DNA from: a virus
DNA length: 39,184 nucleotides
Reading direction: 5' to 3' (one strand)
Virus genome (UHGV): UHGV-0103155
The notes beneath the pieces were generated by a model. It was not told the origin of the DNA and ran no database searches. It saw only the letters and a list, made by a program, of their open reading frames with translations. Of this stretch, positions 1 to 39,184 are shown piece by piece. How positions within the stretch are numbered: position 1 is the stretch's first letter; every line of letters begins with the position of its first letter. The position numbers and the translations under genes were made by a program.

Positions 1-59
1 ATCTGATGAAAAGCGTGGGCAAAGCAGAAGAGAACAAATCGGACAGCTGGTTTAACTAA
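1..59 (+). CDS. 3' end of an unidentified host gene (left flank)
   Basis: Open frame from window edge to TAA near 57-59 (…KSDSWFN-stop), followed by a hairpin terminator; lies outside the att repeat. Confidence 0.3.
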   Translation, partial: LMKSVGKAEENKSDSWFN

Positions 60-97
60 GCGATGTCAGTAACTTCAAGCCTATGATTCGTGAGTAT

Positions 98-130
98 AAA
101 AAACCCTCTGTAGTAACAGAGGGTTTTGTT
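98..130. terminator. Bidirectional rho-independent terminator hairpin (CCCTCTG-loop-CAGAGGG) flanked by A and T runs; probable original guaA terminator
   Basis: Perfect 7-bp stem with A5 upstream and T-rich tract downstream; near-identical stem recurs at 39041-39070. Confidence 0.5.
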
Positions 131-150
131 CATTCATAGTGCAGGGTTCA

Positions 151-167
151 AATCATTCCCACTCAAT
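151..167. repeat. Left att core copy (AATCATTCCCACTCAAT)
   Basis: Exact 17-bp direct repeat of 39109-39125; contains reverse complement of guaA terminal codons. Confidence 0.6.
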
Positions 168-277
168 TATTTACGGATACCATAACCAATTGAGTGATAA
201 CATTTTTCCAAAGATGAATTTTTCTCGTACCGTTTTATATACCGTCACCGGAAATCAGTACCATGAAAAATGCCATG

Positions 278-760
278 CTATCTGGTCAGGGTGTCGTACT
301 GTTTTTCGCAGACTCTTCCGGCTTCGGCTGCCCGGTCAGCATACTCTGCCAGTTGTCTATTTCTCTCGAGAGATTTGCTGAACACGTCGGCAAGCAAAAC
401 TCCGGTGTCTGCGGCTGACGACCCAGCGCCGACAATGGCGTTATAGTGCCTGAGCTGCTCACGGATGGCAACGAGCTGTTGCTGCAACCGGCCAGCGCGA
501 GCGGCAGCATCAAGAGCATCATTGCGCGCCTGGTCGATCCTCTGCTGCGCTTCACGTTCATTGATCGATTTCTCCTGTTCGTAGTGCTGACGAATTCTCT
601 CATCTTCGGTTTTGCGGTCTTCTTTCGCCTGTGCATACCCAGCGTCGTACTGACGACTGCCGTGCACATTCCAGGCAACAACTCCTGATATGACCAGAAC
701 AGCAAGCACCGCCATGATAATCAACTGTTTACGGTATGCTTTTACGAATGACCAGATCAT
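278..760 (-). CDS. Rz-like i-spanin
   Basis: N-terminal TM segment then long charged Gln/Arg/Glu/Ala-rich coiled-coil region; directly downstream of endolysin. Confidence 0.7.
286..561 (-). CDS. Rz1-like o-spanin (lipoprotein) in alternate frame within Rz
   Basis: Alternate-frame ORF with lipoprotein signal …MLPLALAGC and Pro/Ser-rich mature part; start placed at internal Met, uncertain. Confidence 0.5.
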   Translation of the reverse strand: MNVKRSRGSTRRAMMLLMLPLALAGCSNSSLPSVSSSGTITPLSALGRQPQTPEFCLPTCSANLSREIDNWQSMLTGQPKPEESAKNSTTP

Positions 761-1386
761 ACAGCCAGCACCTTACTGGCAGTGACGTACCGCGCGCGCC
801 GGTCGTCGATGCCATTCCTGCCACCATTGATAATCAGAGTTACACGTGCAATATCGCCGGTATACTTCATGCAACCTTTGCTGGAGAAGAACCACGCCGC
901 GCTACGAGCCGCGTATTCGTCCTGCGCCAACAGTTCAGGATTCTCCAGCAGGTCCACTTTCAGGCCGTTTCCGCAATCACGATAGTTATTCAAACCGGTA
1001 ATCTGGATAAGTCCGCGGCCACGGTAATTCCAGCCATCGCCGGGGGCATTGTTCCCCATGCGTTTGCTGTACACCAGATTGGCAATCGCTCGCTGGCGCT
1101 CGAGTGGCAATGGTGGTTCACCAGCATGGCGACCCAGTGCATTAGCCTGCCCCTGAGTGAGACGCCCAGCCCGAACGAAGTTAGCCAGTCCGCTGACACT
1201 GTAGTTGAAATTCTCCTGCAACCTGGTGAAGCCCCCAGACTCATGCCCGACTTGAGCAATAAACATTGCCTGATCTTCTGCTTTGCTGATACCAAACTCT
1301 TTCATCGCAGAAGTTATATGCGAGAACCAGCGTGCGGCCAGCGCCTCGCTAATACCAGCAGCTCGCTGGAATTGTTTAATCTCCAT
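757..1386 (-). CDS. Endolysin, glycoside hydrolase family 19 (chitinase-like lysozyme)
   Basis: Motifs [21 protein letters not shown] typical of GH19 phage endolysins; start set at internal ATG (MEIKQFQ…) preceded by GAGG. Confidence 0.85.
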
Positions 1387-1684
1387 GTTTAGACCTCGAT
1401 ATTTTGAAAATCTGAACAACGTTACCGCGTGTTTTAATAACCGCGGCAAGCATGACAGCGTTGATAATGACCTCAGATAAATCCACAGCCATTGGCGTGC
1501 GTAACCAGATTGCATAGACGACACGAACAGGAATACTGGCCGCAGCAACAATAAGGAAATAAGCAAGCCACCCTCCCCATCTTCGATGTTGAGAGCCGTT
1601 ACGCCGGAATGTGACAACGCGAATTGCTATGCCAGTACAAATAACTGCATTGGTGATAAGCAAAAAAAACTCATGCGTTACCAT
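1376..1684 (-). CDS. Small membrane protein, holin/antiholin-like
   Basis: About 100 aa with three hydrophobic segments and charged C-terminus; overlaps endolysin start. Confidence 0.5.
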
Positions 1685-2084
1685 CGTCTTTTCTCCCCGG
1701 AATTAAATCGCGTGGATTGTCTGAACGGTGGTAGAGCCATATACCAATACGCACAGCGACAATTGCTGACACGAATGCGCCAGCAGAGAAAACAATCCCT
1801 TTTTCAAAAGAGTCCTGCGTGATGGTAGGGATCAGGCTGGCTATGCCGATAAGAATTGATGCTGCTGGTTTGTAGAAAAGAAGTCCACAGAGAAAGCTAA
1901 GCATCGATAAGAGTACGCGACGATGAATTGGGTACTCTACCGCAGAGGTAACAAAAATTACCGCACCAGCAAGAGCACCGAGCGCCACCTCTGGCGGAAC
2001 GCCTACGATAACTGCAGCAAGAGAGCTCACACTAAGCCATTGATTTAAAGAATCAGTAGTTAGATGGGCTGACATAATGAACAC
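1671..2084 (-). CDS. Small polytopic membrane protein, holin-like
   Basis: About 135 aa, four hydrophobic helices, charged C-terminal tail; between tailspike and endolysin. Confidence 0.5.
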   Translation of the reverse strand: MFIMSAHLTTDSLNQWLSVSSLAAVIVGVPPEVALGALAGAVIFVTSAVEYPIHRRVLLSMLSFLCGLLFYKPAASILIGIASLIPTITQDSFEKGIVFSAGAFVSAIVAVRIGIWLYHRSDNPRDLIPGRKDDGNA

Positions 2085-37473: not shown

Positions 37474-37664
37474 ACAGGGCATCACCAGCAGATTTAAGAA
37501 AATGCCTTGAAACTGCAAACATGCTTGCACACAGCGGGATCAGGTTTGTTCCAATTCCCGCTGTCACTGATGCTGAATTTGCAACACTGTCAGCAATATT
37601 CGAAAACAAAATTGAATCACTGGCAGCAGAAGCAGAGATGGAAGAAAATCAGCAGAACTATTAA
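37470..37664 (+). CDS. Hypothetical protein, translationally coupled to methyltransferase
   Basis: ATGA overlap with methyltransferase stop; 64-aa ORF. Confidence 0.4.
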   Translation: MNRASPADLRKCLETANMLAHSGIRFVPIPAVTDAEFATLSAIFENKIESLAAEAEMEENQQNY

Positions 37665-37667
37665 ACG

Positions 37668-38918
37668 TTATTCCCCCGCCATCCACTTCTCAAACTTCGA
37701 CGGGGAGAACGGAATCAGATCCGTATGCTCCCCGTCAATCCATGAATCAATCATATCGGCCCACTGCTGCAACATGTAGGCGCGCTGTCTGGCGTATTCC
37801 GCTTTGTTATATACGGCGCGCACACCTTTCTGCTCATGTGCCAGAGCCTTTTCAATCCAGTCTGAAGGATAACCAGCCTCATGCAACAACGTACTGGCTG
37901 TACGGCGCATATCATGTACAGTGAAGTCCTGAATATGCTCACCATCTTCATTTATTATTTTCACCGTTCTGTCGATCAGAGAGTTCAGCGCGGCATTAGA
38001 TAATGGCTTCCGGAAATTGTAACGACCAGGAACCAGATATTCACTTCCACCAGCGCACATCTGCAACCCGATTAATATATCCTGTGCCTGTTTAGGCAGG
38101 TAAATAACGTGCGCCCGACTTCCCTTCATGCGGTCTGAAGGAATTGTCCATGTCCATTTTTTAAAATCTATTTCATCCCACGTTGCATTGGTGAATTCGC
38201 CTTTACGAACCATAGTGATAAGCACCAGCTTTAAAGCCATTTTCATAGTGCCCATAGCACCAATGGCATCCAGCGTGCGGAAGAACAGACCAATTTCTTC
38301 TGGTGTCAGTGTTCGCTCTCGTGGTTTAAATATGGCGATAGACGAAGGTTTAATGTCAGCCGCAGGATTAAACAAACCATGACCACGGTCATTGGCGTGA
38401 CGGTATACGCTGCTGATGATCTCCCTGGCCTGCACTGCTGTTGCCCGACCACCGCGTTCGACAATCCGGTCACACAAATCACGAACCATCGATGTGGTAA
38501 TTTCAGCCATTATTTTGTTGCCAAGAACCGGAAGTATGTCACGGTCGATCACCGCCTGCTTCATTGCGCGGGTACTGTCAGCCAGGATGACGTGTTTCAT
38601 ATAACTGTCGGTATGTACCGCAAACGTCTCGGCACCACGAATCTTTTTGATACCGTCACGTTTAGCCGCAGCCGGCGACTGGCCTGCTTTAAGCAGCTTC
38701 TTTGCAGCAATCAGTTCTTCTCGCGCTTCTGCCAGGCTGATACCGTCACGCCCATACTGCCCGATTACCAGTGTTTCGCGGCGACCGTTGATACGGTAGT
38801 CATAGCGAAACGAGACCGTGCCTGACGTAAGCACAGCTACATACAGCCCGTCACGATCGGAGACCTTGTACAGTTTGTCCTGCGGCTTGAGGTTTTTTAA
38901 TTTTGTATCGGTAAGCAC
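37668..38918 (-). CDS. int: Tyrosine integrase (P4-like family)
   Basis: 416 aa; N-terminal arm-binding-type segment and C-terminal catalytic region (…HDMRRT…, …LAHE…); adjacent to right att core. Confidence 0.85.
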   Translation of the reverse strand: MLTDTKLKNLKPQDKLYKVSDRDGLYVAVLTSGTVSFRYDYRINGRRETLVIGQYGRDGISLAEAREELIAAKKLLKAGQSPAAAKRDGIKKIRGAETFAVHTDSYMKHVILADSTRAMKQAVIDRDILPVLGNKIMAEITTSMVRDLCDRIVERGGRATAVQAREIISSVYRHANDRGHGLFNPAADIKPSSIAIFKPRERTLTPEEIGLFFRTLDAIGAMGTMKMALKLVLITMVRKGEFTNATWDEIDFKKWTWTIPSDRMKGSRAHVIYLPKQAQDILIGLQMCAGGSEYLVPGRYNFRKPLSNAALNSLIDRTVKIINEDGEHIQDFTVHDMRRTASTLLHEAGYPSDWIEKALAHEQKGVRAVYNKAEYARQRAYMLQQWADMIDSWIDGEHTDLIPFSPSKFEKWMAGE

Positions 38919-38960
38919 AATTCACCCGTATAGAAACCATTTTCATGACGGTATGAGAGT

Positions 38961-38975
38961 ATACCTTTAAGGTAA
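38961..38975. promoter_or_regulatory. Imperfect operator-like site ATACCTTTAAGGTAA upstream of integrase
   Basis: One mismatch to TTACC-N5-GGTAA, about 45 bp upstream of the int start. Confidence 0.3.
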
Positions 38976-39040
38976 TACCGTCACCTGTACCGCCGAAAAA
39001 TATGGTGTAGAGTGAATAGAAATGAATACATAAAAACAAA

Positions 39041-39070
39041 AACCCTCTGCAAAAACAGAGGGTTGAGTTG
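39041..39070 (-). terminator. Phage-supplied replacement terminator for guaA (hairpin CCCTCTG-loop-CAGAGGG)
   Basis: Same stem as the 98-130 hairpin with a different loop; T-run follows on minus strand, downstream of guaA stop. Confidence 0.5.
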
Positions 39071-39108
39071 GCATCTGAATAGGAATGATTTGCTATGAGT
39101 TAGCTGTT

Positions 39109-39125
39109 AATCATTCCCACTCAAT
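39109..39125. repeat. Right att core copy (AATCATTCCCACTCAAT)
   Basis: Exact 17-bp direct repeat of 151-167; overlaps guaA stop codon. Confidence 0.6.
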
Positions 39126-39184
39126 AGTCGCTGGCGGCTTGCCGCTGATGTCATACACCACGCGGGAAATACCGTTCACTTCAT
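39111..39184 (-). CDS. guaA: GMP synthase, 3' end (partial; continues beyond window)
   Basis: Reverse-strand translation of window end reads …[15 protein letters not shown]-stop, the conserved GuaA C-terminus. Confidence 0.75.
   Translation of the reverse strand, partial: [23 protein letters not shown]

Follow-up and report, generated by a model that had tools for sequence, protein, structure and literature searches.

A phiV10-like prophage in guaA carries, beside its attachment core, a predicted terminator akin to the host terminator that it displaces

The epsilon15 cluster of IntSXT-subgroup tyrosine integrases, which includes those of epsilon15, CMGI-3 and their relatives, is reported to target the 3' flank of guaA (PMC8138268). 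An identical 17-bp attachment core in guaA has been published for the phages phiV10, epsilon15 and ZX5, and the junctions of ZX5 were confirmed by polymerase chain reaction and sequencing (PMC9782041); the related phage TL-2011b has also been reported in guaA (PMC3293862). More generally, an attP-carried gene fragment that restores the target gene on integration is a known strategy of integrating elements (Mageeney et al. 2020, PMC7192596). Here, we analysed the virus genome UHGV-0103155, a stretch of 39,184 nucleotides (hereafter the window), in which a prophage is flanked by the 3' ends of the host genes yfgI and guaA, the latter encoding GMP synthase. We consider, with good confidence, that a phiV10-like phage has integrated in guaA with a terminator in its attP that is homologous to that of the host gene, and that integration would swap the two terminators reciprocally.

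The insert is a phiV10-like Uetakevirus, an ordinary and already described kind of E. coli prophage. In BLAST comparisons of window positions 168-20000, phiV10 matched at 95.5% identity over 73% of the region and HEMP4 at 97.6%, while the int/att region (37600-39125, with int and the arm of attP) shares 97.8% identity with phiV10 and 81.5% with epsilon15. This agrees with the kinship to epsilon15 and phiV10 that the original prediction, made from the letters of the window, had proposed. Moreover, the prophage shares with phiV10, epsilon15 and vB_EcoP_ZX5 (Uetakevirus) the identical core, the order Rz-attP-terminator-int and the guaA site, with 95-98% identity to the phiV10-like members. No essential difference separates it from them, apart from a loop-closing G in the terminator (TTTTTG for TTTTTA) and mosaic differences elsewhere.

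The window has exactly two copies of the 17-bp core AATCATTCCCACTCAAT, one at each junction (0 expected by chance). Read on the minus strand it is ATT GAG TGG GAA TGA TT, which gives I-E-W-E-stop of guaA, and translation of attR at the right end of the window yields the C-terminus of GMP synthase with the IEWE* reading frame intact. To rebuild the empty site, positions 1-167 were joined to 39126-39184 and searched against complete E. coli genomes (n = 5426). The rebuilt site was found as a contiguous yfgI-guaA interval in 4463 of these genomes (best match, 99.6%), and the alignment to the unoccupied locus matches the proposed junctions; the attR junction is present in 568 and is 100% identical in strain ECONIH2. 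From the side of the phage, the matches stop exactly at 39125 and resume at 168, such that the window ends form a single continuous attP in phiV10 and EC.W1-9. The reconstructed attP is 99.8% identical to that of phage EC.W1-9, and its core ATTGAGTGGGAATGATT is placed between Rz and int, as in Uetakevirus. The prophage thus lies at the 3' end of guaA, and its stop-spanning core leaves the protein unchanged; the repeats, the frame and the empty site all bear out the reconstituted gene that had been proposed. There is nothing new in the biology of guaA integration as such, since the site and the core are already published (PMC9782041, PMC8138268).

It should be noted that 963 of the 5426 complete E. 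coli genomes do not have a contiguous yfgI-guaA site, yet a phage-type attR was found in 568 only. Thus, about 400 E. coli genomes probably hold something other at guaA.

Beyond the core, the motif CCCTCTG-N6-CAGAGGG occurs exactly twice in the 39 kb, at 104-123 in the host flank and at 39043-39062 in the phage, where 0.01 would be expected, and a repeat search pairs 99-130 with 39038-39069 at 84% identity. The two hairpin copies had been placed beforehand at 98-130 and 39041-39070, which is essentially right, and their loops do differ. An A5 leader had also been described for them: the A-run is present, but it is the minus-strand U-tract of a terminator. The phage hairpin was scored as a terminator on the minus strand only, that is, the strand of guaA and int, the plus strand having no T-tract (GGGTTGAGTT). 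The GenBank records of phiV10 and epsilon15 already place a rho-independent terminator here and on this strand.

The variation of this block points in the same direction. In two scans, viral contigs yielded 47 different forms from phages, in which the stem is constant except for CAGGGGG and CGGAGGG and the loop varies (TTTTTA, TTTTTG, TAATTG, TAATCA, TAAAAA and others). With 20 host versions added, standard pairing holds on the guaA strand in each of the 67 variants; read from the opposite strand, 11 would contain C-A mismatches. In an alignment of 30 terminator sequences, 99.7% of cells were paired and two pairs were changed on both sides. Since stem changes keep G-U pairs on the guaA strand alone, the data indicate that the phage hairpin would act as an RNA element on the guaA/int/Rz strand. 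The scan, the fold, the strand and the placement agree in predicting a canonical intrinsic terminator that is positioned and oriented to end guaA transcripts, as the original prediction had it. At gathering thresholds, Rfam gave no match to a known RNA family at the two att ends, and thus no sign of a known small RNA from a 3' untranslated region.

The host copy is the native guaA terminator, which is contiguous with guaA in the 4463 E. coli genomes. Its stem, CCCTCTGT/ACAGAGGG, has T-runs on both sides, and the 8-bp GC-rich stem is followed by TTTTTT. A simple terminator scan of positions 1-900 missed it, because flanking A-U pairs take up the T-tract into the stem, whereas the fold shows the hairpin clearly. 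The E. coli native and phage terminators have the same 8-bp stem and the same flanking A- and T-tracts around a different loop. In addition, the native guaA flank of K. pneumoniae has the same stem behind a different spacer, and the stem is present in 82 of the 99 attL junctions with sufficient host flank, behind many unrelated spacer types; one host has the compensatory form CCCTCTA/TAGAGGG. We therefore read the phage and host terminators as homologous rather than as a chance match. Two classes can be told apart among the flanks. The native class (E. coli, Klebsiella and several further host flanks) is bounded by (G/A)AAC(A/G)AAACCCTCTGT...GGGTTTTTT(T)AT, and its hairpin begins at 27-49 nt, counted from the core start, directly abutting the convergent yfgI in E. 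coli. In the element class, the terminator lies at 64 nt and has phage-like flanks. In a literature search that did not cover Kropinski 2007 and Perry 2009, we found no mention of the likeness of the phage terminator to that of host guaA.

Is this particular stem needed? We scanned GuaA contigs from a broad, largely non-enterobacterial sample that held neither Salmonella nor Escherichia, and found six distant elements that immediately follow guaA and share its strand; their integrases are 48-60% identical to the one described here. These elements were found in Citrobacter, Lonsdalea, a Vibrio metagenome-assembled genome, Edwardsiella, Tolumonas and Halopseudomonas (L013, L020, L044, L053, L059 and L074). 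Like the prophage, each of these epsilon15-cluster elements has a homologous integrase preceded by a good terminator, 45-65 nt past the guaA stop and before the arm repeats and int. In contrast to the prophage, their stems are unrelated to CCCTCTG (e.g., GCCCGCG, GTCCGCG and GCCCCTA), and most of them do not have the strong stop-codon hairpin considered below. Because related guaA elements use unrelated stems, function appears to require a terminator at this position and not the CCCTCTG sequence. A terminator here would be a constant part of attP design in the guaA-targeting integrase family, and the identity of the phage and host CCCTCTG copies would reflect ancestry. The original prediction had called the phage copy a mimic of the host terminator. 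The resemblance is real, but shared ancestry fits better than imitation; service in guaA 3'-end formation is plausible, but it is one of three roles that cannot be told apart, and it would need no particular sequence.

Two further observations were made among these contigs. A common TCTGGCA / CATGGTAT repeat architecture is found in L013, L074 and L044, across very distant hosts. A full-length guaA, the product of which is 95% identical to the E. coli protein, lies in Klebsiella sp. WOUb02 on a replicon of 276 kb that bears a plasmid label (L012, NZ_CP170105.1).

The arrangement of the locus suggests how the terminators would work. The epsilon15-cluster tyrosine integrase would place the phage at the 3' end of guaA with the protein unchanged. 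The int-side arm of attP offers, in this order, an inverted core copy able to form a hairpin, the predicted intrinsic terminator on the guaA/int strand, the putative arm-type sites and int. The late/lysis genes, attP, the terminator and int share the minus strand with guaA. In the circular phage, the phage terminator would close the late operon past Rz, just before int. After integration, it is predicted to end guaBA transcripts, which would keep housekeeping-gene transcription out of int and from antisense entry into the oppositely oriented early-left genes. The displaced native terminator at attL follows Rz and would end the lysis/late operon of the prophage. From this layout we infer a reciprocal swap of two related terminators, and from the sequence likewise the termination itself, the shielding of int and the descent of the phage copy. 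Formation of the guaA 3' end, closure of the late operon and separation of guaA from int are three roles that are inseparable by sequence analysis.

The phage also supplies coding sequence. In E. coli the 17 bp are the same in phage and host, so that the source of the stop-proximal bases is not visible there. A search of the phage collection with a guaA fragment matched only the two Klebsiella prophage records with host flanks. In the Klebsiella record that has both flanks, attR reads ...GAGTGGGAATGATT before passing into the phage, and attL reads ...GAGTGGGAGTAATCC before passing into the host. In this lysogen, attR thus has the phage GAA TGA and attL the host GAG TAA; the last codon is synonymous and the stop codon is different. 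Given this exchange, the stop-proximal bases of guaA come from the phage, as the original prediction had claimed. Many attL junctions from viral contigs derive from hosts with GAATAA or GAGTAA, and some attR junctions begin with the host ATC rather than ATT. The segment shared by all junctions is GAGTGGGA; since it is common to all attL and attR junctions, strand exchange would fall within it. The Klebsiella junctions fit the gene-restoring attP-fragment strategy. As in the elements that carry fragments of tRNA genes or of protein-gene 3' ends (PMC7192596), the end of the target is carried and integration rebuilds a working gene. Here, however, the coding copy is tiny (four codons and the stop), and similarity resumes past an unrelated spacer, at the terminator.

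Several points weigh against a terminator captured from the host and swapped on integration. The spacer between core and terminator has no detectable similarity between phage and host (21 nt versus 46 nt), and hence homology rests on a block of ~30–40 nt. Compensatory changes are almost absent from the stem, for which a sequence-specific constraint, or continuing exchange between phage and host, may be responsible. Termination and insulation are themselves predictions. Moreover, some of the terminator copies that look native derive from elements, as follows. The host flank nearest to the phage block carries 32 nt identical to the phiV10 block, the loop among them. The phage arms beside this flank are 99-100% identical to epsilon15, and on this sole basis its host is probably Salmonella. 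We rejected this flank type (GAATAAGCCGATAA...) as a native Salmonella terminator, as an integrase or an insertion-sequence remnant lies just downstream: in L164, an integrase of 76% identity begins 229 nt further on, and an IS3 remnant is found instead in L112, L123 and L139. Given these neighbours and the phage-like offset, at least some copies, those of the putative Salmonella type, originate from elements.

Among the attL flanks of Uetakevirus prophages, tandem arrays were seen at guaA (L164, L112, L123, L139, L124 and L160), in which the attL of the Uetakevirus adjoins the arm of a second guaA element. This second element is either intact, with a 53-76%-identical integrase, or truncated by an IS3 remnant.

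These observations give some weight to a reversed ancestry, in which the terminator would belong to the mobile elements and the 'native' guaA terminators of enterobacteria would be footprints of decayed elements. In its favour, the putative Salmonella flank has a phage-like offset, a downstream integrase or IS3 remnant and a loop-inclusive identity to phiV10, and a terminator lies at this position in every member of the integrase cluster that we examined. The E. coli copy is of another kind. It lies 27 nt past the core, against the convergent core gene yfgI and free of any element remnant, and all 5426 E. coli genomes match the terminator/yfgI region. Furthermore, the E. coli, Klebsiella and several other flanks form a coherent class, with offsets of 27-49 nt as opposed to 64 nt in the element class. 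We thus regard the reversed ancestry as unlikely, and tentatively favour a native E. coli terminator, a copy of which was captured from the host guaA flank by an ancestral element.

An independent origin of the phage terminator, with the same stem by coincidence, is very improbable. Terminators do resemble each other in general plan (an A-tract, a GC-rich stem and a T-tract), the spacers of 21 and 46 nt are unrelated, and the match was noticed after the fact. However, a motif found at two places only in 39 kb, against 0.01 expected, agrees here over the 8-bp stem and both flanking tracts, and the stem is fixed in the 47 phage variants and in many types of host flank, while other stems work equally well at the same position in related elements.

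Least credible of all is that the hairpin is mainly a DNA recombination element of attP (a site for IHF, integrase or excisionase): it does lie between the core and the arm-type sites, under an IHF site predicted in the epsilon15 record, and its stem is conserved in sequence and not in pairing alone, but the G-U pairs kept on one strand only would be needless in a DNA site, the loop varies freely while the guaA strand retains its T-tract, distant relatives have kept a terminator with another sequence, and the host copies stand at variable distances from the core, farther than the attB of a tyrosine integrase is expected to extend.

A second hairpin, formed by the core and its imperfect inverted copy, encloses the guaA stop codon. 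The fold of 39025-39128 on the minus strand has a free energy of -38.1 kcal/mol (z = -6.8). Among 33 distinct phage arms, 94% of the hairpin pair cells are standard when read on the guaA strand, compared to 81% when read on its complement. Three positions keep G-C or G-U pairing, and a compensatory change from T-A to G-C has taken place at one pair. The wobbles and the compensatory pair favour an RNA role for this hairpin on the guaA strand. Its formation is possible at attR and in the circular genome (attP), and not at attL. The epsilon15 record predicts RNase III sites near it. Because the hairpin would form at attR and in the circle and never at attL, a state-dependent role is conceivable: beyond replacing the terminator, the phage may impose a designed 3' untranslated region on guaA, in which the hairpin may set messenger stability or translation termination in lysogens, and/or may make the 3' end of the lysis transcript dependent on excision, a sib-like logic applied to lysis genes. 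We hold this to be doubtful.

The comparison with lambda sib, an RNase III hairpin, is an analogy only. In both systems, a hairpin adjacent to att is joined to different upstream genes depending on the state (here, Rz in the circle and guaA in the prophage). In contrast to lambda, int is transcribed away from att and so is not the target, and RNase III cleavage is hypothetical here. A sib-like control of int was thus discarded, as int reads from 38918 to 37668 on the minus strand, with the hairpin and att upstream of it. Enclosure of the stop codon as a general trait of guaA elements was also ruled out: it is strong only in Uetakevirus (pairing probability of 0.9-1.0) and in the Tolumonas element (0.83), and is ~0.5 elsewhere.

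The features of the locus are collected in the table below. The integrase has an arm-binding N-terminal domain (PF13356), a central domain (PF22022) and a catalytic domain (PF00589); for the near-identical integrase of ZX5, integration was demonstrated experimentally (PMC9782041). The putative arm-type motif ATACCGTCAC has 10 matches in the window where 1.3 are expected, and these are grouped around att and int. A block, GGTGACGGTATTACC, is kept in every phage arm that we examined. At the other end of the prophage, the homologue of the Rz-like protein is annotated as a spanin in the records of both phiV10 and epsilon15.

Table. Coordinates in the window of the junctions, hairpins and genes considered in this study
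Feature	Coordinates	Strand	Basis
Host yfgI (DUF5384) 3' end, convergent with guaA	1..59	+	Translates to ...SVGKAEENKSDSWFN*; annotated yfgI in empty-site E. coli genomes
Native terminator of guaA, which yfgI could also use on the other strand	99..130		12-bp hairpin folds on either strand
attL copy of the 17-bp core	151..167		Matches the published attP/attB core attgagtgggaatgatt exactly (PMC9782041)
phiV10-like Uetakevirus prophage body	168..39108		95-98% identity to HEMP4, phiv142-3 and phiV10
Putative arm-type integrase site ATACCGTCAC, Rz-side arm	239..248	+	Coincides with a binding feature named 'integrase' in the epsilon15 record
Rz-like spanin (DUF2514), final gene of the lysis/late operon, toward attL	278..760	-	Pfam DUF2514, E=1.4e-40
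AlpA-family small regulator, candidate excisionase	36173..36421	+	Pfam Phage_AlpA, E=3e-5; homologue annotated in phiV10
Tyrosine integrase, epsilon15 cluster	37668..38918	- (guaA strand), reads away from attR	Pfam Arm-DNA-bind_3, Phage_int_M, Phage_integrase
Inverted pair of putative arm-type sites (ATACCGTCAT / ATACCGTCAC), between terminator and int	38945..38984		
Predicted phage intrinsic terminator, AACCCTCTGTTTTTGCAGAGGGTT then TTTGTTTTTA	39031..39064	-	Terminator scan: 10 pairs, loop 4; fold agrees
15 + 4 bp hairpin of the core and its imperfect inverted copy (39076-39090)	39076..39123	-	Encloses the guaA stop codon
attR copy of the 17-bp core	39109..39125		Last 4 codons of guaA + TGA + TT
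Host guaA (GMP synthase) 3' end, intact	39112..39184	-	Translation; region annotated guaA in E. coli genomes

Some other features of the prophage were recorded. On the plus strand, two adjacent Rfam matches exceed the gathering score, isrK at 5597-5673 (67.7 bits) and C4 antisense RNA at 5698-5781 (66 bits). This pair resembles the antisense-controlled antirepressor immunity module of the P1/P7 type, and may be linked to an antirepressor gene. A phage-borne tRNA-Arg (anticodon TCT) lies at 24622-24698 on the plus strand, opposite to the surrounding structural genes, and the Klebsiella relative likewise has a tRNA-Arg. Three tandem 24-nt repeats ATCCCGTTTTTGGGATCATTCAAC (two exact, one 75%) at 31848-31919, inside an open reading frame of 271 aa on the minus strand, may be iterons or an origin. 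The palindrome CGTGACATGTCACA, repeated at 25277-25290, 27541-27554 and 7600-7613 (two exact copies and one of 86%), may be the binding site of a regulator.

As the prophage is a common one, with its attR in 568 of the 5426 complete E. coli genomes, the finding is of little importance in itself. The addition made here is modest: the attP would carry a terminator akin to the one that integration displaces, and a terminator at this position appears constant across the guaA-targeting integrase family. From this constant position, a design rule can be spelled out for elements inserting at the ends of genes: rebuild the coding end, then terminate the host transcript, and only then place the arm sites and int. 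Such a rule would help the annotation of att sites, and the use of guaA-targeting integrases in genome engineering without disturbing the target gene.

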